64,000 nt of DNA. Source: a virus. Under the pieces are notes generated by a model that saw only the letters and a program-made list of their open reading frames with translations, did no database searches and had not been told where the DNA came from. Numbering within the stretch: the first letter of the stretch is position 1; each line of letters begins with the position of its first letter. This document shows positions 30,851 through 63,378 of the stretch, piece by piece. The stretch lies in IMG/VR virus record IMGVR_UViG_3300021406_000010, positions 32,001 to 96,000 of that record, one strand, 5' to 3'. The translations under genes and the position numbers were made by a program.

Positions 30851-30904
30851 AGTCATAGCCGCCTCCCGCAACTTCCGGGCGGGAAGAATAGCGGGAGGCG
30901 GGGC

Positions 30905-45938: not shown

Positions 45939-46006
45939 GGGCGGCCTTCCGGGGACAGGCCGGCCGTGCCACCCCGGGGAAAGTGGCACGGCCGGAGATC
46001 GGGTGG

Positions 46007-47038: not shown

Positions 47039-47058
47039 TGAGTGCCCCTTTCTCCCTG

Positions 47059-47964
47059 CTAGGTGACCTTCCGGGCGATGACCGTGCTCACGGCGTATCG
47101 TGCCATCTCGCTGGTCGCGCGCCCTGCTCCTGTCATGAACACAATACAGCCTTCATTGCTATCACGCCACACCCTCGGGCCGTCGCCCGGCCACGCCCCC
47201 ACGGCGAAGCGCATGAAAACCCCACGGGAGGAGAGCTCGGCCGCGATCATGCCCTGCCACCGCGACAGCTCCCCCCTGCCGGGCCAGGAGGAGGCCCCCT
47301 GGGGGTCGCGCATGCTGTACCACCCCCACTCCCACCCCTGCCGGGGCGGCGGCTCCTGCGGCCCCGGCGGGGACGCGGGGACGTGCATGAAGCCCCACTC
47401 CTGAAGCACCTGCTCCTGGGTCACCGTCACCCGGCGCCCCGCCAGCCACGCCCGCGCCCGCAGCGCGGCGGCCCGCAGCGCGGCGGCGCGCTCGATGCCC
47501 TCCCGGTTGTCCCGGTCGAGGAACAGGCCGCCCTCCGGCGTCAGGTCATAGGCCCGGCGGGTGGCCGGGTCGAGCAGCTGCAGCAGCGCGTAGCGCAGCC
47601 CCTCGTCCCTCGCCATCGGGTCGAGGGCCAAGTAGGCGAGGCGCAGCTCCCGGGTGGTGGCCCGGGTGGGCACGCCCAGCCTGCGGTAGTAGCCGCGCAC
47701 GTCGCGGACGGTCCAGGGGACCAGCTCCTGGCAGGACGACGCAAGGAAGACCGGGCCGCCCTCCCTGGCGACGCTCCAGCCGTCATCGGTAATGCGCTCC
47801 CCCGGCTCTGCCGTCCAGGCGGCGGGCTCCGCCATGGCGGACTGGGCCTCGGCGAACTCCCGGGAGGCCGAGGACAGGACCCTGGTGTAGTGCAGGACGC
47901 AGCGGGCGCCGAGGACCTCGTCCAGCCGCAGGTCCCCGCTGTCGCCGGTGAAGGGGCTACTCAC
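47059..47964 (-). CDS. DnaJ-like (degenerate J-domain) protein
   Basis: GYYRRLGV...ATTRELRLAY...QLLDPATRRAYD; no HPD. Confidence 0.6.
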   Translation of the reverse strand: MSSPFTGDSGDLRLDEVLGARCVLHYTRVLSSASREFAEAQSAMAEPAAWTAEPGERITDDGWSVAREGGPVFLASSCQELVPWTVRDVRGYYRRLGVPTRATTRELRLAYLALDPMARDEGLRYALLQLLDPATRRAYDLTPEGGLFLDRDNREGIERAAALRAAALRARAWLAGRRVTVTQEQVLQEWGFMHVPASPPGPQEPPPRQGWEWGWYSMRDPQGASSWPGRGELSRWQGMIAAELSSRGVFMRFAVGAWPGDGPRVWRDSNEGCIVFMTGAGRATSEMARYAVSTVIARKVT

Positions 47965-48400
47965 CGTCCTCCTGGTCCGGGCCGGGGGCCGCGCGTTCCT
48001 CGCCCGCAGCTTCGCCGACTTCCGGGGGCGGGTCCGGCAGCGGGACGTCCTCGGCATACACGGGCCGCAAGGCGCCGCTGCCCGCCTCGATGCCAGTGAC
48101 GCGGCCCGTCACCGCGCCGGTCTTCCTGATGCTCATGCCGTCCGTCCTCTCGTCGCCTTCCCCTAGCGTGCCACCTTCCGGCGGCCGGGTGGCCGGCTCC
48201 TCCGTCCACTGGCAGCCGCACGCCCGGCACCTGATGCACAGGTGCGGCCCGGCGCCGGGGTCCTCCTCGCAGGGGAACCCCGGCAGGGGCCCGAAGGTGA
48301 GCAGCGGGACCTCCTCATGGAAGGCGACGCTGGCGTCCTCCGCCCCGCAGGCGGGGCAAAGGTGCTGCGGATCGTGCGGGCGCAGGCCGTAGGGGCTCAC
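47957..48400 (-). CDS. Zn-ribbon hypothetical protein (possibly two genes; second start ATG 48136)
   Basis: CPACG...CRACGCQW; GTG 48400. Confidence 0.5.
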   Translation of the reverse strand: MSPYGLRPHDPQHLCPACGAEDASVAFHEEVPLLTFGPLPGFPCEEDPGAGPHLCIRCRACGCQWTEEPATRPPEGGTLGEGDERTDGMSIRKTGAVTGRVTGIEAGSGALRPVYAEDVPLPDPPPEVGEAAGEERAAPGPDQEDGE

Positions 48401-48750
48401 CCCGGGCCCCGGCCTAGCGCGGCGCTCATCGAGGCGACCGCCTCCGGGTTCAGCGCGCGCCATGGCGCCCACGAGTCGTCGTCCAGCTTGTGCTCCATCC
48501 ACCCCGGGACATCCGGCGTCGGCTCGAACGACGGCTCGCCCGCCGCGCACCGCTCGCACTGGTAGCCCAGGTGCTCAGCGCAGAAGTACAGCCCGCAGCC
48601 GTCCTCGCCGCCGAGCGGCACCTCCCCGGCGCAGACGAAGGCCAGCCCCCGGTCAATCGCCGCGCCGCAGCCGGCACGGTCGCACGTCGCGGGCACCCCG
48701 TACCCGATGTCCCGCTGCCACCTGGCGTCGTACCCTACTGCCCAGCTCAC
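48397..48750 (-). CDS. Conserved phage Cys-rich protein
   Basis: RDIGYGVPATCD..GC...IDRGLAFVC...GCGLYFC..H. Confidence 0.7.
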   Translation of the reverse strand: MSWAVGYDARWQRDIGYGVPATCDRAGCGAAIDRGLAFVCAGEVPLGGEDGCGLYFCAEHLGYQCERCAAGEPSFEPTPDVPGWMEHKLDDDSWAPWRALNPEAVASMSAALGRGPG

Positions 48751-48769
48751 GGAATGCTCCTTTCGCCCT

Positions 48770-48917
48770 ACAGTGCAGTTCGCTTCCCGTGTCCCCGCAA
48801 TCCGATCTGCACTTGTGCACTATCAGCCTGTCAGCGAGTATTTCCGATAGTAAGTTCTGCACTGGTATCTGCACTTCAGTGCACATCTTCTGCACTCACT
48901 CCCCCGGAAGTGCACTG
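48770..48917. repeat. TGCA(C) repeat cluster, putative replication origin
   Basis: About 8 CTGCAC/GTGCAC copies in about 145 bp of lower-GC DNA at the 3' end of the primase-helicase gene. Confidence 0.55.
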
Positions 48918-51307
48918 CCGGAGAACGGCAGGCGCACCTGCAGGCCGGGGAAGCCCGCCCAGCCGTTGCCCCGGTAGTACTCGTGCTCCTTGCGCAGGCT
49001 CGCCGTCAGCCACCTCTGCGCCCGGGGCGGCATGTGCCCCTCGCGCTTGCACCACGCCGCGTACGAGGTCCAGATGTCAGCGCAGCTGCGGCTGACCGCG
49101 TACCTCTCGGGCGGGACGACCTCCAGGCAGTCCTCGGCGAACTGCGCCACGATGTCCTCGTCCTTGCGGTAAGACTCGGCGGCCTCGACTGCCGCCCCGG
49201 GCACCTGCAGGCCCCGCCGCCGCCATTGCACGGCTCCCTCGATGATCCAGGCGAGGATGCCCTCCCCCTCCTCGCGGACCAGACGGCGCTGCAGGTCCCG
49301 GTCGCGGTGCTCCTCGGGGATGACCACCGGCCAGGTGATCAGCCGGACGCGCCGCCAGGTGGCGCCGTCATCAGAGACGCGGGGCAGGTGGTTGGTGGTC
49401 AGGTGTATTTTGCCGACCGGCTTGAACTCGAAGAAGTCGTTGCGCATGAAGCGGGCCGCCACGGCGTCCTCGCCGGTCAGCTGCTTCAGCTTCTGCTCGT
49501 CGAGGCTCTTCCCGGCCTTGGTCTCGCTTGCCCCCAGCCAGCGGCGGCCGACCATCCTGGCCACGTCATTCGGGATCCGGCCGTCAATGGAGGACGCCAT
49601 CAGGGTCTCGACCGGGAGGGTCTGGGAATAGCTGCCCAGCAGGTGGCTGATGACGTTGTGGAAGACGCCCTTGCCGTTCGCGCCGCTGCCATGATGCAGG
49701 AAGAAGACCTGCTCCGAGGTGTCGCCAGTCGCGCAGTAGCCGGCGATCAGCTGCAGGTAGAAGCGGATCGTCGGGTCCGGCTGCACCGTGGCGAGGAACG
49801 CCTCCCACTGCGGCGCCCTCGCCCCCGGCCGGTAGGCGGCCATGCACTGCAGCGTCATCCGGTCCTCGGGATCGTGCGGGCGCCGCTCCCCGGTGGCCAG
49901 GTCCACCACCCCGTCGGTGACGTTCAGGGCCATCGGGTCGGCGTCGAATGTCGCCTGGTCGATCTGCATCAGGGGAAGGCCGCGCGCCAGCTTGTTGGCG
50001 ACGTTAACGGCCTTAGCGGTCTGCTGCTTCTTGACCCATTCCAGGAAGCGGTCGCGGGGCGACGGCAGGACGGTACCGTCGGCGGCCACGTCCGCCTCGT
50101 CGTCGAAGGACATCGCCTCCGTGTCCGCCAGGGTCCGCAGCATCACCTGGGCGGCCCACTCCCCTGCCTCCGGCACGTCGGTGACCCACACGCCGGCCTT
50201 GTAGCGCATCCAGGTGCGCTGGGTGGGGTTCCACCGCAGGGTATCCCCGTAGCGGTCGGCCATCCGGTCAGCCAGCCCGAACTCATTCTGGGGCCGGGCC
50301 GGCCAGTCGGCCTGGGTGGCCTGCCACTGGATGACGCGCGGCTCGGCAAGGCCCTTGCGCCACCCGCTCGTGAACGTCCGGTTGGCCTCCCCCTCGCCGA
50401 GGCCAGCCGCGCGGGCCGCGTCGCACAGCGCGGCCCGCGCCTCCGCCTCCGACAGGATGCCCGCCCCGCCGAGGGTGCCGAGGGAGAAGGCGGCGGCGTT
50501 CAGCGTGTCGTTGCGCTCGCCGGACGGGGCGTCCCGGACCCGGGCGGCCTCGGCCCGCAGCGCGGCCTCCGCGTACCGGCGGGTCGACCCGGCCGCCTCG
50601 GCGGGGAACGCGCCGGCGAGCGCGCTGCCGTTCTGCACCCTGTCGTGGCCCCGCAGCAGGTCTATGAGCCAGCCAGGCGCCTCGGCCGGGTCGATGTCAT
50701 GGGCCGGGCTGAGCTCGTAGGCGCCCTTCGCCGAGACGGATGGCGGCGCGACGATGAAGCCGTTCTCGCCGCGCACGTCCAGGCCCCTGCCGAGGGCCTT
50801 CCCGGCGGAGTTGCGGATGTCGAAGCCAGGGTGGGCGAACAGGTAGTGCACGCCGCCGGAGCCGGTATGGTGCACCCGGGTCTCCGGCAGCGGGCCGTGG
50901 CGGCGCTCGTAGCCGGCCAGCGTGGGATCTCCCCCGTTGTAGGTGTCGACGTCCATCGCGAAGATCCCGGACCGCCGGCCGGTGACGATGCCGATGTTGG
51001 CGTAGGGCCACCACTCCGTGGCGGGCATCATCGCCTCCGGCCGCCACCAGCCGGCGACCTCATCGACGTCGCTGCTGGCGAAGTCAGGCCATGACTGGTG
51101 CACCGGGTGCTTGCCTGGGCTGGCGCACTGCGCCCCGGCATGGCAGGAGCAGTGCCCGTCAGGGCCTATCCAGCGGACCGGCATGACCTGCCAGCCGCGC
51201 CGGGCGTACGACAGGGCGGAGTCCAGCAGCTCCTGACGGCGCTCCTCGTCAGGGGCGTCCAGGACCGGCGGGAGGGCGCCGCCGGGGGGGTCGTCCTGCG
51301 CCGTCAT
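48896..51307 (-). CDS. Bifunctional primase-polymerase fused to a P4/D5-family SF3 helicase
   Basis: GKHP, NIGIVTG..SG...DVD, TGSGGVH, LDVRG..GFIVAPPS; RNDTLN; GSGANGKG; LTGED.VAARF; WRRV. Confidence 0.92.
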   Translation of the reverse strand: MTAQDDPPGGALPPVLDAPDEERRQELLDSALSYARRGWQVMPVRWIGPDGHCSCHAGAQCASPGKHPVHQSWPDFASSDVDEVAGWWRPEAMMPATEWWPYANIGIVTGRRSGIFAMDVDTYNGGDPTLAGYERRHGPLPETRVHHTGSGGVHYLFAHPGFDIRNSAGKALGRGLDVRGENGFIVAPPSVSAKGAYELSPAHDIDPAEAPGWLIDLLRGHDRVQNGSALAGAFPAEAAGSTRRYAEAALRAEAARVRDAPSGERNDTLNAAAFSLGTLGGAGILSEAEARAALCDAARAAGLGEGEANRTFTSGWRKGLAEPRVIQWQATQADWPARPQNEFGLADRMADRYGDTLRWNPTQRTWMRYKAGVWVTDVPEAGEWAAQVMLRTLADTEAMSFDDEADVAADGTVLPSPRDRFLEWVKKQQTAKAVNVANKLARGLPLMQIDQATFDADPMALNVTDGVVDLATGERRPHDPEDRMTLQCMAAYRPGARAPQWEAFLATVQPDPTIRFYLQLIAGYCATGDTSEQVFFLHHGSGANGKGVFHNVISHLLGSYSQTLPVETLMASSIDGRIPNDVARMVGRRWLGASETKAGKSLDEQKLKQLTGEDAVAARFMRNDFFEFKPVGKIHLTTNHLPRVSDDGATWRRVRLITWPVVIPEEHRDRDLQRRLVREEGEGILAWIIEGAVQWRRRGLQVPGAAVEAAESYRKDEDIVAQFAEDCLEVVPPERYAVSRSCADIWTSYAAWCKREGHMPPRAQRWLTASLRKEHEYYRGNGWAGFPGLQVRLPFSGSALPGE

Positions 51308-51615
51308 GGCGCGTCATCGCCCCGCGCCTCGGCGAGGAGGGGAAGCGCGAAGAACGAGTCGTGTCCCGGGCCGAACCGGGCCACGGTGACCGGGGCGCCG
51401 CGCCAGTAGCCGCCGTGAGGCCCGAACGCCTGGCGGCACACGGCCATGGCGTCCCCGGGGCCGAAGCGCTCCAGGAACCCGCCCGTCACCTCCCGGGCGC
51501 GGAAGTGCGGCAGGTGGGGACCGCAGCAGCGGGTGATCTCCGCGATCACGTAGTCGTGGAACTCAAGGTGGGCAAGGGTCTGACGGGATGCGAAATCCGG
51601 TGACGTGGTCACCAT
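51304..51615 (-). CDS. Hypothetical protein
   Basis: 103 aa; coupled to primase. Confidence 0.65.
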   Translation of the reverse strand: MVTTSPDFASRQTLAHLEFHDYVIAEITRCCGPHLPHFRAREVTGGFLERFGPGDAMAVCRQAFGPHGGYWRGAPVTVARFGPGHDSFFALPLLAEARGDDAP

Positions 51616-51665
51616 GGAGGGACACCTTCCGGGGTTTTGAGGATCCGTCGTGAAGGCCGTGCACG

Positions 51666-51684
51666 CTGGCCCCTGAGGGGCCAG
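51666..51684. terminator. Hairpin
   Basis: CTGGCCCC-TGA-GGGGCCAG after the exonuclease stop. Confidence 0.4.
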
Positions 51685-51695
51685 GCACTACCGGG

Positions 51696-52580
51696 TCACT
51701 GCCAGAGCGCCCCCCTCTCCGCCCGCGCGGCGAGCGACGACAGCTCGTAGCGCCGCAGGAAGCCGGTCAGGCCCCCGGTGACGGCGCCCTCCCACCTGGC
51801 AGCCTCCCAGAAGCCGTCCCCGGAGGGTACCCCTGGCTGGCGCGGCGGGTCGGCCAGCTCCATGATGTCCTTCCATGCCTCCACCGGGGCTTCCGGGTCG
51901 CCCAGCGTGGCCCTGTCCAGCGCGGGCAGCGGCCAGCGGAACCCCGACCCGGCCAGCGCCTGCACGGCGCGGGCCGGGCCGATGCCGCGCACCCCGGGAA
52001 TGCCGTCGGACGCGTCCCCCGCCAGGGCCCGTAGGCACGGCAGCAGGCGGGGGTGCGCGCGCCACCTGCGCTCGACGTCCACGTCCCGGTCCGGCGGGAC
52101 GCCCCGCAGCGTGGCGCGCTCAGTGCGGCCGTCAAGCAGCTGCAGCAGGTCATCGTCGCAGGACCAGATGACGATGCGCTCGCCGGGCAGGCCCCGGGAG
52201 GCAGCCCGCCACAGGGCCGCGATCACGTCATCGGCCTCAAACCCGGGCACCGTCACCTGGGGGATCCCGGCGGCATCGACCAGCTCGCGGGCCTGGGCCT
52301 CCTCCAGGCCGCCATCGCGCGCCCGGGGGCGACGGCCCCGCTTGTACGGCCCCCACAGGGACCGGCGCCAGTCCAGGCCGCCGGGGCCGTCCCACGCGAC
52401 CACGACCCGGCCAGGGCGCGTCTCGCGCACCCGCGCGGCCAGGGTCCCGGCGAGCATCATCAAGGTGGCGGTGGGCGTCCCGTCAGCGGCATGAAGCCCG
52501 CTGCCCCGCGCGGCGCGGCTGCACCTGACGAGCAGCCCGGTCCCGTCCGCCAGCAGGACGGGGCCGTCAGGCGCGGGCAC
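51696..52580 (-). CDS. 5'-3' exonuclease (PolI N-terminal / FEN-like)
   Basis: LLADG, VVAWD, YKRGR, FEADDVIA, DDDLLQL, LAGDASDGIPGVRGIG; GTG 52580. Confidence 0.88.
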   Translation of the reverse strand: MPAPDGPVLLADGTGLLVRCSRAARGSGLHAADGTPTATLMMLAGTLAARVRETRPGRVVVAWDGPGGLDWRRSLWGPYKRGRRPRARDGGLEEAQARELVDAAGIPQVTVPGFEADDVIAALWRAASRGLPGERIVIWSCDDDLLQLLDGRTERATLRGVPPDRDVDVERRWRAHPRLLPCLRALAGDASDGIPGVRGIGPARAVQALAGSGFRWPLPALDRATLGDPEAPVEAWKDIMELADPPRQPGVPSGDGFWEAARWEGAVTGGLTGFLRRYELSSLAARAERGALWQ

Positions 52581-53007
52581 CGCTGGCCTGCCGCGCCGCT
52601 GGCGCGTCCTCGCCGAGGCCGTACAGGATGGTGACGGCCCTGACCACGCCGAGGACCTCCTCCAGCCGCTGGTCCGCCGCCGTCCTGGCATCCGGCCCCG
52701 TGCCGTGGAAGGCGCCGAGGGCATGCAGGCTCCGGGCCATCGGCTCGATGTCGGCAAGCGAGAACAGCCGGGCGGAATCTGCCTTGTCGGGGTCGGAGCG
52801 GAGGAACTCCATCGGGGTGCCGTCAGGGCTGACGAACCAGGTCAGCGGGTGATCAGGATCCGGGGAAAGCTTGCCGCGCAGCCAGGAGGCGCTCTTGCCG
52901 AAGAACGTGCGGGCGGCCTCGTCCACCCGCCACACGGGCGTCTGCTTGCGGTGCCAGTCCCGGCTGGCGATCGCTTCCCTCGTCACGATCGGCTGGCGCA
53001 CTGCCAT
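52567..53007 (-). CDS. Putative MerR-like HTH protein
   Basis: VDEAARTFFGKSASWLR...ARLFSLADIE. Confidence 0.55.
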   Translation of the reverse strand: MAVRQPIVTREAIASRDWHRKQTPVWRVDEAARTFFGKSASWLRGKLSPDPDHPLTWFVSPDGTPMEFLRSDPDKADSARLFSLADIEPMARSLHALGAFHGTGPDARTAADQRLEEVLGVVRAVTILYGLGEDAPAARQASGARA

Positions 53008-53030
53008 CTGTCCCTGTCCTCCTCAGTCAG

Positions 53031-53069
53031 CGGCGCGGCCCCGCCGGTTGCCTCCCGGGGGCCGCGCCG
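53031..53069. terminator. Hairpin
   Basis: CGGCGCGGCCCC...GGGGCCGCGCCG 12-bp stem, intergenic. Confidence 0.5.
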
Positions 53070-53087
53070 TCTCTCGCCCTCTCAGGC

Positions 53088-53816
53088 TTACTTCTTCGGT
53101 GCGTGCAGCGACGCCGTCGGCGCGCTGCGGGTGGTGATCGCCGCGAGGATCTGAAGTCCCCGCAGCGGGTGGCGCCGGATCCAGTGCGCCATCTTGACGT
53201 GGTCCAGCACCCGGACGGACCGGGTAAGCCCGTTGTACTCGGCCTGGGTGACCTTGCCGTCGGCCAGCAGCCTTAGCAGGACTGCCCCCGCCGGCTCGGC
53301 CTTGCCCTTGACGTACCTCTGCTGCCATGCGTCCTGGTAGCCCTCGACGGGCACCTCGAATGGCTTTTCCGGCTGGGCGGCGAGCAGGTGGCCCTTGCCC
53401 TTGCCGGACTCGATGACGGTGACGGGAAGGCCCGCCTCGCGGGCGAGGTGGTCCTGGTGGACTCGGATCATCTCCTGGACGGCGGTGCGCCGCTTGCCGA
53501 TCTCGTCGTTCACCGCGTCGATGGCGCTGACTTCCTCGGTCAGCGCCTTCACCTCGGCGGCCTCCAGCCGCCTTGCCTCGGTCGGGCTCACCCTCCCGAA
53601 CACCTCGGGCAGGTGGCGCAGCGCCCCGAGCAGGCCCTCGGTCAGCGGGACCTGCTCGACGGGGTCAGGCGCCGGGGGAACCTCGGGGGCCGCCGCCGGG
53701 CGGGCGAGAAGGTCGGCGAGCTTCTCGATGGTCCAGGGCTTGTCTCCCTGGACCATCGACAGGACGCCGGGGGCTACTGCCTGGTCGAGGGCAGTGCTCG
53801 CGGTCGCTTCAGTCAT
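53088..53816 (-). CDS. Hypothetical protein (242 aa)
   Basis: ATG 53816 after GAAGGAAG and a promoter motif. Confidence 0.7.
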   Translation of the reverse strand: MTEATASTALDQAVAPGVLSMVQGDKPWTIEKLADLLARPAAAPEVPPAPDPVEQVPLTEGLLGALRHLPEVFGRVSPTEARRLEAAEVKALTEEVSAIDAVNDEIGKRRTAVQEMIRVHQDHLAREAGLPVTVIESGKGKGHLLAAQPEKPFEVPVEGYQDAWQQRYVKGKAEPAGAVLLRLLADGKVTQAEYNGLTRSVRVLDHVKMAHWIRRHPLRGLQILAAITTRSAPTASLHAPKK

Positions 53817-53852
53817 GATGCTTCCTTCGGGTCGGGTGTTGCTGTCGTGCCG

Positions 53853-53875
53853 ATGATAGCAAGAAAACCTGCTAT
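53853..53875 (-). promoter_or_regulatory. Conserved promoter/operator motif copy
   Basis: ATAGCAGGTTTTCTTGCTATCAT on the - strand, heading the replication block. Confidence 0.7.
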
Positions 53876-53888
53876 CAGGCAACCAGGG

Positions 53889-54248
53889 CTAGTCGTCCCC
53901 GCCGGGGTCGACGTTCCAGGCCGGCTCGTTGCGACGGGGCTCCTCGTGCCGCCTGATGTCGTCCTCGTGGGAGGCGTAGAACTTGTCGGCCACCTCCTGC
54001 GCCACGGCGGACAGCCCGCCGATGGTGGCCGCGAACTCCTTCAGCTCCTCCGCCGGCGGATCGTTGACGGGTGCCTCCTCGACACGGGCCACGATGCCCG
54101 TGAAGTCCTCCGCGAGCCCCTCGAACAGGGCCGGGAGGCCGGCGAAGAATCCCATGATCGACGCGGCGTTGTCGAACTGGATCCCGCTGAGGACCTCGGA
54201 GACGTGGTCCTTCAGCTCCGTGAGCGCCGGTGATGGTGATGGTGCCAT
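53889..54248 (-). CDS. TraA-like plasmid transfer accessory protein (119 aa)
   Basis: AGGAG RBS before ATG 54248; LPALF...PV...HEDDIRRHEEPR.NE..WNV resembles actinomycete plasmid transfer proteins; in frame with the upstream ORF. Confidence 0.5.
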   Translation of the reverse strand: MAPSPSPALTELKDHVSEVLSGIQFDNAASIMGFFAGLPALFEGLAEDFTGIVARVEEAPVNDPPAEELKEFAATIGGLSAVAQEVADKFYASHEDDIRRHEEPRRNEPAWNVDPGGDD

Positions 54249-55661
54249 GTCGTGCTCCTCTGATGGTGACGGGGGCGGCGGGCGGTCACCGCCCGGTCCG
54301 TGCCCGGGGTCAGGCCGGGCCCTCCTGGACTCGTAGGTGACCTCCGGCCCGGGGTCATCCACTGGCGATGTTAGCAAGGAAAGCCTCATCCCGCGAACAA
54401 GCCGGAACAGCCGGCGCAGGCGGTGCTTCCACCTGCGGTACAGGCGCCCGACCAGCCGGACCAGCCGGAAGTCCCCGTTCCCGCCGGCCCGCCAGGTCAT
54501 CAGCTCCGGGTCCGGGCGCGGCGGCGAGGGCCGGAACCGGAGCCTCGGGCACGGGATGGCGCCCCGCCGGCGCCACGACCACCGCAGCCCGCGAGCGCCT
54601 CCCCGGGCGGCACCGCGAGCCGCCGTCCAGGGCAGCCTGCGCCACCGCACCCTCGCCGCCCCCCTCCTGGCCCAGTAGAGCGGGGACAGCGGGGGGACCC
54701 ACCCCAGGCCGCGCGGGCGCGGCGGGCGGCCGGGCATGCCACCCCGGCCGCCAGGCGGGCGGAACGCCGCCCCGGAGCGGGAGGCGCCCCGGGACCGGGC
54801 GCCGCCAGCCCGGGGCACGCCGCCTGGGCGGCGCCCGGTCCCGCCGGGATGGCGGCTCCCCCCGCCGGGGATGCCCCGGGACCGCCCGGCCGCCATCCCC
54901 GGGAGGCGGAATGACGACGGGCGGGACCCTCCGGGCATCCTGCCCCGCGCCGGGGCGCCCCAGCCGGGCACCCCGGAGAGGCGCGCCCCGCGAGCGGAAC
55001 CGCGCGAGGGACTCGCCCCGGCGCGGGGACGCGCGCCCCCCGGCCAGGGCAGGTGCATGCCCCACGGGCGCAGGCTTCCCGCGCGAAACGGGTGCGCACT
55101 CCCCGTGCGGAATGAGTGGCCGCCTCCTGCACGGGAGAGCGCCGCGCCCCCTGTGCGGAAGAAACGTGCACCCCCCGCACGGGAAGAGGCCGCACCCCCT
55201 GTGCGCACCCCCCTGTGCGCACCCCCGTGCGCGGCGCTACCCCCCGGGGGTAGCGCGCCCCCCGGGCCGCGCCGGCGCGAGCTGCCCGCACCCCCGGAGA
55301 ACCGCGCCGGCGCGCTCTGGGCGGCCATGCGCAGCCAGGGCACGCGCCGCGCGATGCGGGGCGCGCCGCTCATCAGCGCACGCGCCAGCGAAGCGCCCCC
55401 CTGGCGCACCCCCCGGGGGCCGCGCCGGCGCGGCATGCCGCCGCCTCGCCAGTTCCGGGGGTGCAGCCGGCGCAGTACCGCGCCGGCGCGGCGCAGCCTG
55501 CGCCGCACGTGCCGCAGGACGCGGGGCGACACCGCGACGCCGCCGCCCGCTGCCAGGCCAGCCCCCCAGCCGGCCAGCCGCGCGGTGCCTGCCGCCGCCA
55601 GGATGGCCAGGAAGACCACGATGGCGGCCCTCCTGGCCCGGACGGCGTCCCACTTACCCAC
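54249..55661 (-). CDS. Membrane-anchored Arg/Gly-rich protein of the transfer module
   Basis: N-terminal TM segments then low-complexity R/G; reads through in frame into 54248. Confidence 0.45.
55085..55415 (+). repeat. GCACCCCC(T/C)GTGC-type repeat cluster
   Basis: e.g. CGCACCCCCTGTGCGCACCCCCCTGTGCGCACCCCCGTGCGC at about 55191-55232. Confidence 0.6.
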
Positions 55662-56769
55662 GAGCGCCCGCTCCTCCCGGGAGCTGGCCGGCCGGGGCGG
55701 CGATCAGCCCTGGCTGGCGTCCTGCCCTGGCCAGCCGGGGAGTGGCCCGGCGCTCTTCCAGCAGCGTCCGCGCGACGCGGCGCCGGTCCCTCCCCGTCGG
55801 GTCCAGCTCCCGGGACAGCTGGTTGATGGACGGCAGCCTGGATTCGGGCAGCCCGGCCAGGCGCTGCCGGGCCCCCTCAATGACCTCCTCCGCAAGGGCG
55901 GGAGCAGTCATGGACGGCACGGCGTGCAGGGTCGCGGAGCCGCGCACGACCTGGGGGTGCACAGGCGGCGCGCTCTCTTCCTGCACAGGGGGTGCGCCGT
56001 CCCCGTGCACAGGGAGTGCGCTCTCCTTGGCGCGGGGGGTGCGAACGGGGGGTGCGGCCTCCTCCTGCGCGGGGTGCACAGGGGGTGCGCCATCGGGCAG
56101 CGCGGGGGGTGCGGCGCTCGCCTGCACAGGGGGTGCGGGGATCTCGCGCACGGGAGGCGCGCTGTGCACCGTGCGCAGGGCGCGCGCACGGCCGGCGCGG
56201 CGCTCGTCGACCCAGGCGATCGCGCGGGCGGGGCTGCTCTCCCCGACCCAGGCGGCATGGGAGGTAGCGCGCAGCGAGAGCAGCGGGTGCCACATCCAGC
56301 GCGCCGGGCCAAGCCGCACGGCGTGCTCCTCGACCAGGCCGAGCTCCATCAGGCGGTCGCGGCTGACACGCCGGGAGTGGATGCCCCATAGCCAGGGGGA
56401 TAGGGCGCTCATCATGAGCATCCCGACCGCCATCACGGTCGGGCGCCAGTGCACGGCGGCGAAGTGGCTGTAGTTCATTGCGCCTATGACCAGGCCGAAC
56501 GCGTAGCTGGCCAGCCGCAGCCGCATCGAGGAGTCGTTCTTCATCTGCGCCGCGTGGGCGTGAAAGGCCAGGTAGACGGCGATGGACTCCAGGGCCAGGG
56601 CGACGAGGACCTGGCCCCCGACCGGCCAGGGCACGTGCTGGCGCAGGTAGGCGAGCTGCCCGATGAACGCCGTGGCGTTCACCAGCACGACGGGAACGGC
56701 GGCGGTGACGGCCAGCGCGCGGCTGCCAGCGGGCGCGGCCGGGCGATCCGCCAGTCCGGTAGGTGTCAC
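55654..56769 (-). CDS. SpdB/DUF2637-like multi-pass membrane spread protein
   Basis: Four TM segments, then APPV[HQR] repeats and a C-terminal HTH-like PSINQLSREL; divergent from traB-like gene. Confidence 0.6.
   Translation of the reverse strand: MTPTGLADRPAAPAGSRALAVTAAVPVVLVNATAFIGQLAYLRQHVPWPVGGQVLVALALESIAVYLAFHAHAAQMKNDSSMRLRLASYAFGLVIGAMNYSHFAAVHWRPTVMAVGMLMMSALSPWLWGIHSRRVSRDRLMELGLVEEHAVRLGPARWMWHPLLSLRATSHAAWVGESSPARAIAWVDERRAGRARALRTVHSAPPVREIPAPPVQASAAPPALPDGAPPVHPAQEEAAPPVRTPRAKESALPVHGDGAPPVQEESAPPVHPQVVRGSATLHAVPSMTAPALAEEVIEGARQRLAGLPESRLPSINQLSRELDPTGRDRRRVARTLLEERRATPRLARAGRQPGLIAAPAGQLPGGAGARG
55950..56165 (-). repeat. GCACAGGGGGTGC-type repeat cluster (inverted relative to 55085-55415)
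   Basis: About 9 degenerate copies. Confidence 0.6.
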
Positions 56770-56803
56770 GGGGAGCCTCCTCGGGGGAGCGGTAAGTTGC
56801 CCT

Positions 56804-56826
56804 ACAATACCAAGAAAGCCTGTATT
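56804..56826 (-). promoter_or_regulatory. Conserved promoter/operator motif copy
   Basis: AATACAGGCTTTCTTGGTATTGT upstream of the spd-like gene. Confidence 0.7.
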
Positions 56827-56902
56827 CGGTACACTGGCCCTGGGGGGCCGTGGGTGACGGCAGGGTCACACGTCACACTTTTCGCCCCCTGGCCTGCGGA
56901 AA

Positions 56903-56975
56903 CGTGAAGTGTGACCCTCGCGGGGTGTGATCCTGGCATGGCAAGGATCATTGCCCGCGAGGGTCACACTTCACG
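56903..56975. repeat. Perfect 22-bp inverted repeat with nested inner stem
   Basis: CGTGAAGTGTGACCCTCGCGGG (56903-56924) / CCCGCGAGGGTCACACTTCACG (56954-56975); inner TGATCCT/AGGATCA. Confidence 0.85.
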
Positions 56976-57025
56976 GCCCGCAACTCACACTCCGCTGGCA
57001 AGGAAAGCTAACATTGGAACTCGTG

Positions 57026-59086
57026 ATGGATCACATGGATCACAGTGCGCGCGTGCGGGTCGTCACCTCCCGCGCGGACCCGGGCGCGGGACAGCCCGTC
57101 GCGGCAATGACGCCGCCCGGCGCCGCGCCGCCGCACAGGGCGAGGGCATGGGCGCACGCGGCCGAGACCGCCTTCGCCGCCGCGCTGGCCGTCACCGCCG
57201 CCACGGTCATCGCGCCGCGCGCCGGGGCCCCCGGCTGGGCGGTCCCGCTGGTCTCCGAGCTGACCGGTCTCGTCATCGCGGTCATCGCGCGCAGCCAGCG
57301 GCGCAGCGCGCTGGCAGGCTGCTGCGCCGCGATGGGAACGTTCCTCGCCACGTGGGGAGGTCTGGCCGGAGCCGACCCGTGGCGGTCCCCGCTGCTGATC
57401 GCCTGGCTGGCCGGGATGGCGGTCCTGGTGCCCGCCGTCGCCAGCGTCGCCCGCCGCCGGGACCGCGACCCGGAGCCGGCCATCACGCCGCCCACCCCGG
57501 AGGACGAGCACGACGCCGAGATGCGCAAGTTCGAAGCCATGCTCGCCGACCACGGGTGCGAGGTCCGGGTGCTCACCCTGTCCGAGGGACGGGCAGGGCG
57601 GGTGCTGCAGCTGGAGCTGCCCCTGTCGGGGAAGGTGACCCTGGGCCACCTGGAGTCGATCGCCGTCAACATCGGCGTCAGCCTGCGGCTGCGCCACGGG
57701 GCGGTCGAGTTCGCGGCGGGCGCCCACTCCGGCCTGGTGACCATGAGGCTCCGGGAGCGCAACGTCCTCGCCGAGGTCCCCGTGCTGACGCCCGAGCTGC
57801 GGGCCAGGACGGTGAACAGGCCCTTCGCCGTCGGCATCAGGGAGGACGGCCCGCCGCACTGCATCACGGTGCGGGAGCTGAACTGGCTCGTCGTCGGGAC
57901 CCTGGGGGCAGGCAAGTCGACGTTCCTCAACACGGTCATCCTCCAGCTGGCGTCCTGCCCGGACGCGGTCCTGTGGGGCATCGACCTGAAGGGCGGCCGG
58001 ACGATGAGGGCCTGGCTGCAGGCGTGGGCCGAGGGGAAGGCCCCCTTCCCGGCGCTCGACTGGATCGCCACCACCCGGGCGGAGGCGAACCTCATGACCA
58101 TCGCCTTCGAAGCAGTCTGCAACGCCCGGATGAACAGCGGCCGTGGCGGCAGCAAGATAGCCCCGAACCGCAACATGCCGCAGGTCGTGCTGTTCAACGA
58201 GGAGGCATCCTACCTGTACTCGACCGACCGGGGGACCCGCAAGGAGCTGATCATGGAGCTGGGCGAGGAGGAGGGCGCGAAGGCCACGTCGAACACGGAA
58301 TTCATCGCGCGGGCCAAGCGCACCAACCCGGGAACCCGGTCGGAGGCGGCGACCTACTTCTGGGCCACCCAGCGGGGGACCGCGTCGATGGGCGGCAGCG
58401 CCGACCTCAAGGCCCTCACCCGGGGCCGGGTCGCCCTCGGCGTGACCACTGAGGGCGAGCTGCAGCACGTCATCCCGGGAGTGCGGGCCGGCCGCAAGAC
58501 GCTGGTGGCGCTGGGCGCCCCCGGGGTGGGGATGACCGCCGTCGGCACCGACAGCAGCGGCCTGGTGAAGTTCTTCCCCACCGACCACGTCGCTGGACAG
58601 TGCAGCGAGAACGGCAACGACGGCTGCGTCCCCGCCTGTCCCATCTACGCGGCCAGCATCGAGGTCGGCCCGGTCCGCCCCCCGCTGGACGAGGTTACGG
58701 CCGCCGGGGTGGAGGAAGCGCTGGCCGCCGCCGGGCACCCGGGCGCGTACGCCCGCCGCTGGGACCGGGCCGCCGCGATCCTCGGCCCGATGGCCGCCGG
58801 CCGGAGCGAGTCGCCCGGGAGCGCGGACAGGGCGCGCGAGGTGGCCAGCCGGGCCCCGGAGCGGGTGCACCCGGCCAGGATCCGGGCCCGGAACATCCTC
58901 GCCTCCCGGGGGGTGGAAGGCGGGACCACCAAGTACCTGATGGACCGGATCAGGGACGAGGGCATCCCGCTGGTAGAGCGCGAGACCTTCCAGCGGTGGC
59001 TCGCCGCCGATGACGAGGCGGGCATCATCCACCACGCGAGGTTCAACCGGTGGGTGACCGGCCCGGCACCGGAGAAGAAGGACTAG
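57026..59086 (+). CDS. FtsK/SpoIIIE-family TraB-like conjugative DNA translocase
   Basis: N-terminal TM helices; GTLGAGKS Walker A; IDLKGGR; VVLFNEE Walker B-like; ATQRGT; C-terminal wHTH-like tail. Confidence 0.8.
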   Translation: MDHMDHSARVRVVTSRADPGAGQPVAAMTPPGAAPPHRARAWAHAAETAFAAALAVTAATVIAPRAGAPGWAVPLVSELTGLVIAVIARSQRRSALAGCCAAMGTFLATWGGLAGADPWRSPLLIAWLAGMAVLVPAVASVARRRDRDPEPAITPPTPEDEHDAEMRKFEAMLADHGCEVRVLTLSEGRAGRVLQLELPLSGKVTLGHLESIAVNIGVSLRLRHGAVEFAAGAHSGLVTMRLRERNVLAEVPVLTPELRARTVNRPFAVGIREDGPPHCITVRELNWLVVGTLGAGKSTFLNTVILQLASCPDAVLWGIDLKGGRTMRAWLQAWAEGKAPFPALDWIATTRAEANLMTIAFEAVCNARMNSGRGGSKIAPNRNMPQVVLFNEEASYLYSTDRGTRKELIMELGEEEGAKATSNTEFIARAKRTNPGTRSEAATYFWATQRGTASMGGSADLKALTRGRVALGVTTEGELQHVIPGVRAGRKTLVALGAPGVGMTAVGTDSSGLVKFFPTDHVAGQCSENGNDGCVPACPIYAASIEVGPVRPPLDEVTAAGVEEALAAAGHPGAYARRWDRAAAILGPMAAGRSESPGSADRAREVASRAPERVHPARIRARNILASRGVEGGTTKYLMDRIRDEGIPLVERETFQRWLAADDEAGIIHHARFNRWVTGPAPEKKD

Positions 59087-59754
59087 GACGGCGGCGGGAC
59101 CGCCGCCGCGACGGCCCGGTCAACGTCATCCTCGAGGGGGCCGCGCTCTTCCTCCCCCGCCACCAGCTGGCCGGTCAGGTCATGGATGGCGGAAAGCCGC
59201 CGCAGGGTGTCGGCGTGCCGGCCCGCGATGGCCTCCAGGCGGCGCCCGGCGACCTCGCTGACCGCCGTGGCGCGGGCGGTCGCCTCGTCGGTCACCCTCT
59301 TCGCCTCCTCGCGGGCGCCGGCGAGCACCACGTCCGCCTGCTGCCGCGCCCCGGCCGTAAGGGAGTCCGCCTCCCGGGCGGCCTCCGTGACCGACTGGCG
59401 GCCCCGGGCGGTGGCGTCCGCGAGGATCTTCTCCGCGTCGGCGAGCGCGGCTGCCCGGTTGCCCTCGATCTCGGCCGCCGCTGTCCGCAGCACGTCCTCG
59501 ATCAGCTGCTGGCCCTGAGGGCTCTCCGCTCCCCGCAGGAGGGCTCCCCCCGCCTCCCTGACGGCCCTGGCGGCCCGCTCCTCGGCGGCCCGGACCCTTT
59601 CCAGCAGTGCCAGGATGACGCGGTCCACCTGGCCGGGATGATAGCCGTCGGGAACCCGGTCGAAGCGGCGCGGGTCGGGGGCGAGCGCGCCCGGCGGGGG
59701 AGCCGCCGGCTGGGGGCCTGTCCGGCCTTGCCTGGGAGCGGGGGGAGTGGCCAA
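59083..59754 (-). CDS. DivIVA-domain coiled-coil protein
   Basis: RRFDRVPDGYHPGQVDRVI matches the DivIVA F..GY...VD motif; long Ala/Glu/Arg coiled coil. Confidence 0.65.
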   Translation of the reverse strand: MATPPAPRQGRTGPQPAAPPPGALAPDPRRFDRVPDGYHPGQVDRVILALLERVRAAEERAARAVREAGGALLRGAESPQGQQLIEDVLRTAAAEIEGNRAAALADAEKILADATARGRQSVTEAAREADSLTAGARQQADVVLAGAREEAKRVTDEATARATAVSEVAGRRLEAIAGRHADTLRRLSAIHDLTGQLVAGEEERGPLEDDVDRAVAAAVPPPS

Positions 59755-59955
59755 CGGGTCCTCCTGATAACGGCCCGCTGTACGTCCCGGGCTCTATCGC
59801 CGGGACCGTCACCAGCGGCCCCGGGACGACGGGGCCGCGAGGGGCGGGGGTGCTGCACTGCACCCTACCGGGGAACACCAGGATCCGCTGGGCTTGCGTG
59901 AAGCAGGCAAGGACGGGACTGGCGGCGAGGGCCGCCGACGCCAGCTGGACGGCCA

Positions 59956-60213
59956 TCAGGACGTCATCAGGCTCCCCGTCGCGACCTGCGCGGCGGTCAG
60001 CGTGTACGTCAGGTCGGCGAGGCCGTAGTCAGTGCTGCCTGACGGGACGTTCGCCAGTCCCCGGGCCACCTGGCACTGAGCGTGGCTCCCGAGCAGGTCG
60101 AACCCGGCCATGGTGACGGTGAGGGGGCCGATCACGACGGTGGAGCCGTTGGCGGTCAGGGTGGAGGAGGACGCGTTGCCGGCGTAGCTGAGGTTAGTCG
60201 GGGACTCGGCCAT
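59956..60213 (-). CDS. Hypothetical (possible virion) protein
   Basis: 85 aa Thr/Ser/Gly-rich; GGAAGGAG RBS. Confidence 0.55.
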   Translation of the reverse strand: MAESPTNLSYAGNASSSTLTANGSTVVIGPLTVTMAGFDLLGSHAQCQVARGLANVPSGSTDYGLADLTYTLTAAQVATGSLMTS

Positions 60214-60227
60214 TCAGGCTCCTTCCG

Positions 60228-60488
60228 TCACGCCTTCCGGGGCAGGCCGTAGCGCTCCCTCACCGCCTGGTACTCCGGGGTGCCGATATACCAGGCGACC
60301 ACCTCACTGGCCACGTCTCCCTCGTCGCGCCCGGTCAGGAGGATGTAGGCCTGCTTCAGCCCGTCGTACCTGCCCACAGCCTGAGCGCTCCTGTCGGGGT
60401 CGGATCCGTATGGCTCGGCGTCCATAGCCGCGTAGGCGGCCTTCAGCTCCCGCATCAGTGCCACGGCTGCGCTCTTCCTCGTCCTCAT
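60228..60488 (-). CDS. Hypothetical protein, leaderless
   Basis: ATG 6 nt after TATCGT. Confidence 0.65.
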   Translation of the reverse strand: MRTRKSAAVALMRELKAAYAAMDAEPYGSDPDRSAQAVGRYDGLKQAYILLTGRDEGDVASEVVAWYIGTPEYQAVRERYGLPRKA

Positions 60489-60494
60489 GGCAGC

Positions 60495-60517
60495 ACGATA
60501 TCAAGAAAGCCTGTATT
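60495..60517 (-). promoter_or_regulatory. Conserved promoter/operator motif copy
   Basis: AATACAGGCTTTCTTGATATCGT. Confidence 0.72.
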
Positions 60518-60529
60518 GAGATAGCCTGG

Positions 60530-61354
60530 TCAAGAGACGGGGTCCGCGATCGGGACCGCGACCACGTCGTGCGAGCCGCAGGTGCGGCACTGGAAGACCG
60601 CTCCGCTGCCGTGGTTCCCCTGCCGGAGCTGCAGGTTCGACAGGCTGTTGTCGTGCTTCTTCCTGTTGTCCTTGTGGTGAACCGTTTCGTAGTCAGTAAG
60701 CGGGCGGCCAAGGGCCTTGGCCATCACCAGGCGGTGCTGCATCACGTAGCCGTTGACGCCCGGCGGGCACAGCAGGGCTTCCTCCGGCGAGGGCATGACC
60801 ATGGTGTATCCCTCGACGATCCTGATCCCTCCCTTCCAGTTGTGGTGGTCCTCCCTGGCCCTGTACCGGTTTGACCTGGTGTCCACCCCGGCTCGCCGCA
60901 GGGTCCCCCTGATCGTGATCGGGTTACCGCCGTGCTTCCTGGCTAGTTCGGCTAGGGAGGTCCCGGCCTTGAACTCCTCTGCCAAGACAGCAGTCTGCTC
61001 CTCGGTAAAGCGGTGGTGCTTGCCTCCCAGGCGGGGCGTGATCCCGGCCTCGCGCAGCACCAGGGAGACGGTGGTGTCCCTGGCGTGGACCAGGGCGGCG
61101 GTGTTCTTGACGCTAGTGCCCTCGTGCCAGAGCCGGATGATCTCGGCCCGGTTCTCCGGGGTGTCGTGCCAGTTGTACTCGGCACTGGGACGGCCCCGGC
61201 GTTCGATTCCCAGGCGCTTGAGGGCTGCGATGACCGGCACGGGAGAGGTCCCGTAAATGTCGGCGACCTGCTGAAGCGTCTTGCCGGCCTGATAGTGGCA
61301 GGCAATCTCGGCGTCCTGCTCGGGTGTGAAGAGTGGTTTTTTCCCTCTTGGCAT
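60530..61354 (-). CDS. HNH homing endonuclease with three N-terminal HTH repeats
   Basis: G.[TS]L..[VL]A repeats; HHNWKGG; GYVMQHRLVMAKALGRPL...ETVHHKD...DN...NLQL. Confidence 0.85.
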   Translation of the reverse strand: MPRGKKPLFTPEQDAEIACHYQAGKTLQQVADIYGTSPVPVIAALKRLGIERRGRPSAEYNWHDTPENRAEIIRLWHEGTSVKNTAALVHARDTTVSLVLREAGITPRLGGKHHRFTEEQTAVLAEEFKAGTSLAELARKHGGNPITIRGTLRRAGVDTRSNRYRAREDHHNWKGGIRIVEGYTMVMPSPEEALLCPPGVNGYVMQHRLVMAKALGRPLTDYETVHHKDNRKKHDNSLSNLQLRQGNHGSGAVFQCRTCGSHDVVAVPIADPVS

Positions 61355-61485
61355 GCCTTAACTATATTAAGACGACACTATCGCTGTCAGGGAGAATCGC
61401 CTCGAACTTACAGCTTTAACTGCCCCTGACGGATCGCCCGAACTAGGACAATCACATCCGAAGCGTATGTAGTCGACTATACTCT

Positions 61486-61878
61486 TTAGGCTGCGAGCGT
61501 GAGCGACCCGCTGGCGATCGTGAAGGTGTCGCCGGAGTTCGTCGTTTTGGCCGCCGTCAGCGGCCCCCACCACAGCCGTACCGGGGTTCCCGAGGCATCC
61601 CACAGCTCGATCCCGTTGATGGTGGTGGCGGGCATGTTGGTGACCGTCACCGCGACGTTGGAGGCCTTGGAGCCAGCCGAGGCCGCCGCGAACGTGACGG
61701 TCGGGGCGCCCGTCCCGGCGGTGTAGCCGCCGGAGGTGGCCAGCTCGGTGCCGTTGGCGGTGTTGGTGCCGTTGGCGGTCATCAGGCGGCAGGTGAGCGG
61801 CGTCACCGGCGGGGTGAACGAGCCGCCGCAGCTGGCGTCCAGCAGCCTGTTGGAGAAGGTCTGGTCAAGGCTAGACAC
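61486..61878 (-). CDS. Minor tail / tail-fibre-type structural protein
   Basis: EL..SGGY...VTFAAAS.G...SN...LWDA...WWGPL...KT.NSGDTFTI..GSLT. Confidence 0.65.
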   Translation of the reverse strand: MSSLDQTFSNRLLDASCGGSFTPPVTPLTCRLMTANGTNTANGTELATSGGYTAGTGAPTVTFAAASAGSKASNVAVTVTNMPATTINGIELWDASGTPVRLWWGPLTAAKTTNSGDTFTIASGSLTLAA

Positions 61879-62068
61879 CGGACTGTGCTCCCGTCATCGC
61901 GTCGCAGGTCCCGTCGGGGCACCCGGCCGCCGCGCAGCAGGCGAAGTGGCGGCCGACCGTCACCAGCCCGTCGTCGCCGGGCACCACCACCTGGTGGTGC
62001 GGCTGGTCGTCCACCTGGTGGCAGCCGTCGCACTCGCGCAGCTCCCGGGGCGGCTCCGGGGCGGTCAT
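61871..62068 (-). CDS. Small Cys-rich protein
   Basis: CDGCHQVDDQPHH...HFACC...GCPDGTC. Confidence 0.6.
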   Translation of the reverse strand: MTAPEPPRELRECDGCHQVDDQPHHQVVVPGDDGLVTVGRHFACCAAAGCPDGTCDAMTGAQSGV

Positions 62069-63360
62069 AGGTCCCTCACGCTCCTTCCGGGGCCGGCGTG
62101 GCAATCACCGTGCGCACCGAGAAGAGAATGGCGCATGAGCATCAAGCTCCTGCGCCGCCGAAAGCGCAGATGGCTGTGTCCCTTCTGCGGTTCCCCGTTC
62201 TTTGTCATCACTGCGGGGCTAATACGCAAGAGAAACCATCTGCCTGGACTCACGAGCATCGACGGGCTGCTTACCTGCGCGGAATGCGGCCTCGGCGTCG
62301 GATACGAGGATTTGGTGCGGCTAGAGCGCACCGGGAGATTAGCGAGCCCAGGTAACCACGTGCACCAGCAGGCCGAGGCGGCGCAGCCCTGCTTGGAGTC
62401 CAGCCGCCGCAGCTCCACGACCGTGACCTGGCCCCACGGGACGAGGGGGACGACCGGGACGGAGACGCCCGTCCGCAGCGCGACGGTCACGGTCCGCACG
62501 GCCTTGCCGGAGCGGTAGAAGGTCACCTGCACCGCCGCCCCGTCATCCCCCGCCAGGGACAGCAGGCACCCACGGGGCGCCGCCAGGACCGGGACGGCTA
62601 CCGGGCCGCCGCCAGGCGGCAGCTGGACGAGGGCCTCCATCTCCGGCGCGGCGGGCAAAACCGGGGGAACAGGGACAGGAGGAGGCGCGGGGGCGGGGAC
62701 CGGGGCCTTCGGGGGCGCGGGAAGCGCGATGCCGGCCAGCTGGGCCGCCGACCCGTGGAACGCCGAGCAGTCGACCGGGCCGGAGATCCCGGCGATAGAC
62801 GCCGAGGGGGTGAACTGCAGCAGCGCCGGCGACCGGCCACCGTACGGCGCCCACCAGGAGGCCGGGACCCTGCCGTAGAGGGCTGCCGGGTCGCCCGAGC
62901 CGCTGACGTACTCGCTGGCCCACAGCCAGTCGGCAAACGTCAGGTCCATCCCCGCCGTGTACCAGTGCGGGGCGTAGGCGCCGATGCGGTGGCCCGGGTA
63001 GCAGTGCCGCAGCCGGGCGGCGGCGTCGACCGCCTGCTGCCGGGTGGGCGGCCCGTCGGGGGCGCGCTCGTAGTCGATGACGACCCCCCAGCCCGCCAGG
63101 TCGCCGGCCACGTCCGCGAAGTGCTGCGCCTGGTCCGCGCCCGCCCCGGAGGCATCCAGGAACAGGTAGGCGAGCGGGATGAACCCGTGGCGGGCGGCGG
63201 CGGCCATCGACGTCCGGGCGGCTGCCCACCTGGGGTTGACGTAGCCGGTGCCCTCGGTGACCTTCTCGGCCCCGCCGCCGCAGGTCGCGGCCACCCGCCC
63301 CCAGTCGGGGGCGCCCTGCCAGGAGGAGCAGTCGACAAGGTACGTAATGGATCCGGTCAC
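62065..63360 (-). CDS. Endolysin, GH25 muramidase with Pro-rich linker and C-terminal domain (true 3' end uncertain)
   Basis: VDCSSWQG, KVTEGTGYVNP, AYLF, VIDYE (DxE), LWASEY, LQFT...VDCSAF. Confidence 0.85.
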   Translation of the reverse strand: MTGSITYLVDCSSWQGAPDWGRVAATCGGGAEKVTEGTGYVNPRWAAARTSMAAAARHGFIPLAYLFLDASGAGADQAQHFADVAGDLAGWGVVIDYERAPDGPPTRQQAVDAAARLRHCYPGHRIGAYAPHWYTAGMDLTFADWLWASEYVSGSGDPAALYGRVPASWWAPYGGRSPALLQFTPSASIAGISGPVDCSAFHGSAAQLAGIALPAPPKAPVPAPAPPPVPVPPVLPAAPEMEALVQLPPGGGPVAVPVLAAPRGCLLSLAGDDGAAVQVTFYRSGKAVRTVTVALRTGVSVPVVPLVPWGQVTVVELRRLDSKQGCAASACWCTWLPGLANLPVRSSRTKSSYPTPRPHSAQVSSPSMLVSPGRWFLLRISPAVMTKNGEPQKGHSHLRFRRRRSLMLMRHSLLGAHGDCHAGPGRSVRDL

Positions 63361-63378
63361 GTACCTTCCGTGGAAAGA

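Follow-up and report, generated by a model that had tools for sequence, protein, structure and literature searches.

A four-gene cassette related to actinomycete Tra/Spd transfer modules in a clade of contractile-tailed actinophages

Gene content of the cassette

The 64,000-nucleotide stretch of viral DNA analyzed here (the window; positions 32,001–96,000 of IMG/VR record IMGVR_UViG_3300021406_000010, hereafter G000) contains at 53889–59754 a cassette of four genes, which code for a tra-partner protein, a SpdB/DUF2637-like protein, a TraB-like translocase and a DivIVA-like protein (Table 1). A sequence-only reading of the window had delimited a module of three genes at 53889–59086; these three genes stand, and the DivIVA-like gene also belongs to the cassette.

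Table 1. Features of the cassette and its borders (window coordinates)
Feature	Position	Strand	Remarks
Tra-partner, 590-aa open reading frame (ORF)	53889–55661	-	one N-terminal hydrophobic helix, Arg/Gly-rich linker, conserved C-terminal domain; profile matches
119-aa C-terminal domain, possible short product	53889–54248	-	own ribosome-binding site and ATG at 54248; three-helix hairpin
SpdB/DUF2637-like membrane protein, 371 aa	55654–56769	-	conserved membrane domain, repeat-bearing linker, putative C-terminal helix-turn-helix (HTH)-like motif
TraB-like FtsK/SpoIIIE translocase, 686 aa	57026–59086 (start 57026/57029)	+	fold, catalytic motifs, winged helix
DivIVA-like protein	59083–59754	-	N-terminal F-x-GY-x-VD motif and coiled coil
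8-mer GCACCCCC array, 14 copies in two opposed runs	55168–56136	6 on + (55168–55406), 8 on - (55457–56129)	inside the two helper genes; candidate clt/TraB recognition sequence (TRS)
RTCACA repeat cluster	56865–56991		intergenic, conserved in ten phages; candidate second clt or operator
Phage promoter motif before the spd operon	56803–56826 (motif at 56807)	-	TACAG box and extended -10, TG-n-TATnnT
Phage promoter copy before conserved core gene orf243, left cassette border	53852–53875 (motif at 53856)	-	same motif

The model of the ATPase (mean predicted local distance difference test score 82) comprises four N-terminal helices, three of them above the hydropathy threshold, an FtsK motor (Z-scores 23–25 to FtsK and TcpA) and a C-terminal winged helix (residues 610–680), which aligns to the Z-alpha domain of ZBP1 (Z 9.5, root-mean-square deviation 1.8 over 64 residues) and to PadR. 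Together with the cluster assignments of the Spd protein given below, this agrees with the earlier description of a membrane-anchored FtsK-type ATPase divergent from a Spd-like gene. The Walker A motif (GTLGAGKS), the arginine aligned with that of the FtsK ARAAG motif and the TQR sensor are intact. Walker B does read NEE, as had been remarked: it is LFNEE here, the NEE is kept in four variants from other assemblies, and the relatives exhibit xDE. The EE version is also found in pJV1 TraB, in a protein named TraB by NCBI and in several homologs from metagenome-assembled genomes (MAGs); since it is natural in pJV1 TraB, it is no sign of a dead ATPase. The possibility of an inactive enzyme was rejected on the strength of these natural examples and of a branch length (0.6–0.7) equal to that of the core genes of the phage.

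The frame of the tra-partner is not reported by gene callers, which give its last 119 residues only; its counterparts in nine related phages are open over about 560–735 codons. Profile comparisons matched its C-terminal domain to the gene that immediately precedes tra in pZL12 (72c), pSQ10, pAGRA, Keanu (gp93) and P1312 (gp64), with E-values of 1e-11 to 1e-19. The sequence-only reading had recognized this conserved domain as a TraA-like gene; it is the end of the longer frame, and its likeness to canonical TraA (pJV1/pSN22 type) is weak (E-values 0.008 and 0.34 in a 23-protein set, 0.79 for the Atlas TraA-like cluster, no NCBIfam match). Kinship with the WXG100/ESX proteins was considered and rejected, the hints being weak and the fold searches returning generic hairpins.

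By sequence comparison, the product of 55654–56769 is a member of the SpdB/DUF2637 group: it was assigned to the Atlas clusters DUF2637 (0.92) and SpdB (0.91), and it matches plasmid DUF2637 proteins. PF10935 was matched by three of its eight orthologs (best 1.4e-5); the window protein itself gave no Pfam match and no direct match to SpdB2 of pSG5 or pJV1.

Relationships of the ATPase

The ATPase is most similar to homologs from uncultured Actinomycetota/Streptosporangiaceae (39% identity), followed by Tra proteins of the pAGRA/pSQ10/pZL12 kind from plasmids and phages (E-values 1e-16 to 1e-31), more weakly by canonical TraB (1e-6 to 1e-10) and most weakly by chromosomal FtsK (3e-4 to 2e-2). 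Its score against the NCBIfam family plasmid_TraB (NF041214) is 25.7 bits, versus a cut-off of 800 bits; pZL12 Tra is also below (20.2 bits). Hence the earlier label of a Streptomyces-type TraB holds as far as a Tra/Spd-type module is concerned, and is loose for the type, the nearer kin being pAGRA, pSQ10, pZL12 and the Streptosporangiaceae homologs. Judged from its sequence, the protein resembles TraB in architecture and presumed working, yet stays under the NF041214 cut-off.

A phylogeny against TraB and FtsK, which had been suggested as a check, gave a divided answer. A branch of 3.1 substitutions parts FtsK from every Tra-type sequence, and the approximately unbiased (AU) test did not reject attachment of FtsK beside the phage clade (p 0.40), so that the root position is ambiguous. 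Because of this ambiguity, the assignment of the ATPase rests on similarity, architecture and gene context. Chromosomal FtsK/SpoIIIE proteins share the motor fold and the catalytic motifs, but they show the lowest similarity and form a separate clade on a long branch, and no Pfam FtsK_gamma match was found in the phage ATPase.

Two further groups of homologs were encountered. In more than 30 contigs of uncultured soil Actinomycetota/Streptosporangiaceae MAGs (L031–L067; L005:9636–11926) the tra-partner domain, mostly as a short gene of about 113 aa, directly precedes the same ATPase, with no Spd; several copies look frameshifted. The L005 locus sits among ordinary metabolic genes, and six MAGs have flanking genes in common. 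This pair is possibly a domesticated chromosomal translocase. Five viral contigs of 45–210 kb (L017, L018, L020, L023 and L024) encode close Spd homologs and tra, all oriented alike, and in four of the five the partner gene lies between the two; their ATPases appear as a separate clade, which suggests an independent capture.

Phage setting

G000 is 166,488 bp long, and a 144-bp overlap of its ends, in which one position differs, indicates a complete, circular assembly. Besides a UvsX-like recombinase and a 1169-aa DNA polymerase it encodes a tail sheath, a baseplate wedge, a portal and a major head protein. The terminase is 30–33% identical to its counterparts in RedWattleHog, Finch, E3 and Bxz1-like mycobacteriophages. 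It is thus a contractile-tailed actinophage with a Bxz1/E3-like terminase, and phages of the Bxz1/E3 kind are lytic. Searches of G000 for a tRNA were negative, and so were those for a tyrosine integrase, a resolvase, ParA and ParB, which leaves the suggested label of a phage-plasmid unsupported; nor was there an AAA_31 or ParB_N match, although maintenance systems of unrecognized type may escape such searches. The phages that carry the cassette are apparently a lytic soil family.

As had been proposed, the cassette lies between replication and tail/lysis genes: a primase-helicase and a 5'-3' exonuclease flank it on one side, gp80 and a GH25 endolysin on the other, with the tail sheath and baseplate genes beyond. 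Actinobacterial myoviruses similar to Bxz1, E3, Finch and RedWattleHog share with G000 the contractile tail, the large genome and the Gp80 and DUF7229 families besides the terminase. They differ in that neither the ATPase nor the Spd protein matched any isolated member; the ATPase was found in no isolated Mycobacterium, Gordonia or Rhodococcus phage.

Other genes of G000 were noted in passing. A HTH-HNH endonuclease gene (window 60530–61354, minus strand) separates the cassette from gp80; it is intact in one relative (L001), a remnant in another (L004) and absent from the others. A second DivIVA-like ORF (G000:150532–150885, plus strand; E-value 9.5e-6) lies outside the window; none of the four relatives that were searched showed it. 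The window also holds three ORFs of great length (1967, 1289 and 1520 aa; window 16810–30871, minus strand), which have similar 'F/YHGT' starts, the last one behind a phage promoter copy at 30831.

Conservation and inheritance

The search in related phages called for by the sequence-only reading revealed nine relatives (five on contigs of 161–165 kb) in which the cassette genes are syntenic and in the same orientation, at 37–46% TraB identity, and two complete relatives in which the flanking gene order is kept while TraB, Spd and DivIVA are missing genome-wide. The cassette-free relatives with intact flanks indicate that the four-gene cassette occupies a variable slot. All three partners that travel with tra on plasmids are retained across the ten phages (mean identity 32–61%). 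In each of the eight loci long enough to show it, traB is followed by the DivIVA-like gene, and its presence or absence coincides with that of the other three genes.

The trees of TraB, Spd and DivIVA, each within the sampling of its gene, recover the supported clades of the core genes, with the deep branches unresolved. Pairwise identities correlate weakly with those of the core genes (rho 0.20 for TraB and 0.06 for Spd, from partly overlapping core alignments), so the case for vertical inheritance depends on the supported clades that they have in common. Together with the synteny, these clades indicate that the module is a stable part of the phage; the earlier view that it appears integrated into phage regulation is supported by the promoter described below.

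An independent assembly is colinear with the window over 45654–63370 (99.9% identity, zero indels), and another assembly has the same gene order; a chimeric assembly was rejected on this basis. There are no att-like ends at the cassette, the longest repeat common to both borders being 11 bp, no integrase, rep or tRNA target was found there, with no rep among its four genes, and its GC content at third codon positions (GC3) equals that of the core genes. The cassette is therefore neither a chimera nor a recent insertion, and it lacks the integrase, rep, att ends and tRNA target that would mark an actinomycete integrative and conjugative element (AICE). A chimera, an att-flanked element and a dead ATPase had been named beforehand as the findings that would overturn the idea of a phage transfer module, and none of the three was found. 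Of the 19 differences from the independent assembly L110, 10 fall in the two helper genes (window 54731–56401), with all 14 repeat copies unchanged. With a single synonymous difference in traB, no dN/dS ratio could be estimated. A scan of viral contigs based on the primase was negative.

Promoter and DNA repeats

The spd operon stands behind a predicted phage promoter, as the sequence-only reading had noticed. The motif occurs in 25 copies in G000, versus none in ten Markov simulations, and its copy upstream of spd is kept in nine of nine relatives. Many copies lie about 5–10 nt before an ATG (genome-wide, e.g. window 5186 and 60498), a spacing that suggests leaderless mRNAs. No GntR or TraR gene was found in the cassette or next to tra. 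The inversion of the helper genes was seen in this phage clade only; in all other loci where the genes were encountered together, they run in one direction, in the order (spd)-partner-tra.

Two sets of repeats accompany these genes. The GCACCCCC array is the strongest 8-mer cluster in G000, and relatives carry other 8-mers in the same place: CGTGCCAG in two lineages (9–18 copies, with no occurrence in the rest of those loci) and CGCGCCAG in others. The copies occur in several frames, on both strands and also between genes. The array of this genome exceeds 300 of 300 selection-corrected synonymous shuffles; across the clade the arrays beat such shuffles in eight of nine phages (<=2/300), the weakest being L012 (14/300), and the traB and primase controls showed no excess. 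On account of the frames, the strands and the shuffles, the idea that the 8-mers are a by-product of peptide repeats was rejected. RTCACA is present in 3–11 copies before traB in all ten phages, with an expectation below 0.15. Within this cluster, positions 56903–56975 form an inverted repeat with perfect 22-bp outer arms; the long hairpin was dismissed as a conserved feature, arms of 22 bp being found in this genome only.

Because clt loci consist of 8-bp repeats (PMC4447253), the GCACCCCC-type array or the RTCACA cluster could be the loading site of the translocase, and both are put forward as candidate clt sequences. pAGRA, the NA02950 plasmid and Keanu have comparable 8-mer arrays on the upstream side of their tra genes. 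GCACCCCC showed no genome-wide polarity of the kind known from FtsK-orienting polar sequences (6/8 and 6/6). Additional 8-mer clusters, AGTGCACA and AGTGCAGA, were seen outside the window at about G000:106500–111500 and 139500–145000; these are possibly peptide repeats in tail proteins.

Comparison with known systems

Phages with Tra/Spd genes are already known, namely pZL12, Hiyaavirus and P1312. pZL12 (GQ919031), the Streptomyces plasmid-phage ZL12 (Zhong et al. 2010, as cited in PMC3583192), likewise has a tailed-phage genome in which an FtsK-like tra (71c) is preceded by a long gene with the same C-terminal domain (72c) and a membrane protein gene (73c). According to PMC3583192, its transfer requires tra and two adjacent genes, so the statement that TraB alone suffices does not suit the nearest Tra group. 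pZL12 is, however, a 90-kb plasmid-phage with its genes in one direction and a GntR regulator at the head of the cluster, whereas G000 is a 166-kb myovirus in which partition genes were not found and the operon is divided into divergent halves, with a phage promoter and an added DivIVA-like gene; the ATPase core is only 21% identical to pZL12 Tra. In tra loci of the pZL12/pSQ10 type the partner gene adjoins tra, while in the present phage it is inverted and spd lies between.

The isolated Hiyaavirus phages (Keanu gp91/93/94; Hiyaa, Galactica, Spocter) and Thermobifida phage P1312 also possess tra-partner and FtsK-like genes, and Keanu in addition a Spd homolog (E-value 1.5e-19) and its array upstream. 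They differ in their one-direction operon, their genomes of 60–83 kb and the lack of a DivIVA-like gene in the regions examined; no functional test was found. The nearest named homologs (E-values 1e-19 to 1e-31) come from theta plasmids of Streptosporangiales/Streptomyces (pAGRA3207_2, pSQ10 and the NA02950 plasmid), which have the same long upstream gene and a repeat-rich upstream region. These are plasmid replicons, with GntR regulators in pAGRA and pSQ10 and with no virion genes seen in the regions examined. The TraB-clt-SpdB2 system of pSVH1, pSG5, pJV1 and pIJ101 (PMC4447253) is comparable in its membrane anchor, FtsK motor, winged helix, SpdB-family partner and 8-bp repeats; relative to it, the phage exhibits 18–21% core identity, no TraR, and repeats that are intragenic and run in both directions.

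What is new here is a myovirus clade without recognizable lysogeny genes that has the rearranged operon behind a phage promoter, intragenic lineage-specific 8-bp repeats, a DivIVA-like gene that travels along and sister genomes in which the cassette is lacking.

Possible function of the cassette

Intact genes, a motor fold, synteny, vertical inheritance, a promoter and repeats make up the anatomy of the locus. To judge from these features, it is somewhat more probable than otherwise that the cassette spreads phage DNA across the compartments of a filamentous host during lytic infection. The phage clade would once have captured an actinomycete Tra/Spd transfer module. In a mycelial actinomycete, probably one of the Streptosporangiales, the spd operon would be transcribed from the phage promoter during genome replication, and a membrane-anchored ATPase hexamer would load via its winged helix on the RTCACA cluster or on the 8-mer array. 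The ATPase, the SpdB-like pore and the tra-partner might then pump double-stranded phage DNA across cross-walls, perhaps into a touching hypha, with the DivIVA-like protein helping to position the machine at tips or septa, so that one infection would convert several compartments before lysis. A spread of phage DNA has been suggested for SpdB2 homologs on actinophages (PMC4447253). More tentative, and on balance doubtful, is the bolder idea that a strictly lytic myovirus may have turned a captured conjugation machine into a virion-free movement system, which would cross septa and enter touching hyphae regardless of receptors, with loading sites written in the helper genes and changing from lineage to lineage, and with a DivIVA mimic that targets tips or septa.

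Several points weigh against a role in spreading between compartments. Two complete relatives manage without the cassette, which is thus dispensable. Model clt loci are short direct arrays, whereas the 8-mers of the cassette are opposed and irregularly spaced, and the 8-mer does not visibly co-vary with the winged helix of TraB or the C-terminus of Spd. No full copy of the promoter motif stands before traB. Mycelial growth of the host is presumed, and the pumping of 166 kb per lytic cycle presupposes DNA in a suitable form, circular or long.

Or perhaps the phage is an unintegrated persistent replicon, in a carrier state or as a phage-plasmid, that conjugates between mycelia like pZL12? The three-gene kit is the same as in pZL12, the genome assembled into a complete circle, binning placed one relative in an Actinomycetia MAG, and G000 encodes its own DNA polymerase and primase-helicase. 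We consider this unlikely, given that ParA, ParB, integrase and resolvase were not found in G000, that no TraR/GntR gene stands beside tra and that the terminase kin of the Bxz1/E3 kind are lytic. Slightly less probable still is that the motor was repurposed within the infected compartment, where it would move or anchor replicating phage DNA or clear septa with no cell crossing. The operon is split and inverted relative to every plasmid and other phage examined, lone FtsK-like genes exist in lytic Streptomyces phages such as Yaboi, and the DivIVA-like gene has joined the cassette, all of which fits such a role; the SpdB-like and tra-partner genes have nevertheless been kept, and their characterized relatives serve transfer or spreading (PMC4447253, PMC3583192).

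Host manipulation or exclusion, in which pores and a DivIVA mimic would stop growth at the tips, alter the envelope or prevent superinfection, with DNA transport secondary, appears improbable: TraB is toxic when unregulated and SpdB2 is pore-forming (PMC4447253), the cassette adjoins the lysis genes and its promoter is common to many small non-structural genes, but the conserved ATPase motifs, the winged helix and the two sets of DNA repeats would be left unexplained. The variable site and the two cassette-free relatives might point to a separately inserted element such as an AICE or the remnant of a plasmid, to a passenger in decay or to an assembly chimera; all of these are very hard to reconcile with the colinear independent assembly, the synteny in nine relatives at their low TraB identity, the lack of integrase, rep, tRNA target and border repeats above 11 bp, and the core-like GC3.

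Conclusions

That phages may pass from one compartment of a multicellular bacterium to another in a virion-free manner is an idea already put forward (PMC4447253); no demonstration for a lytic phage was found in the literature. The general idea has precedent, and the host is uncultured, which limits the significance of the present case. The ten related genomes with the cassette and the two complete ones without it provide a natural comparison, in which candidate loading repeats and the phage promoter are defined. If the module works, it would give these phages a second route of gene transfer and would alter the view of burst size, host range and the containment of infection in mycelial soil bacteria. 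If it indeed proves to be a movement system, it would be a bacterial counterpart of the movement proteins of plant viruses.

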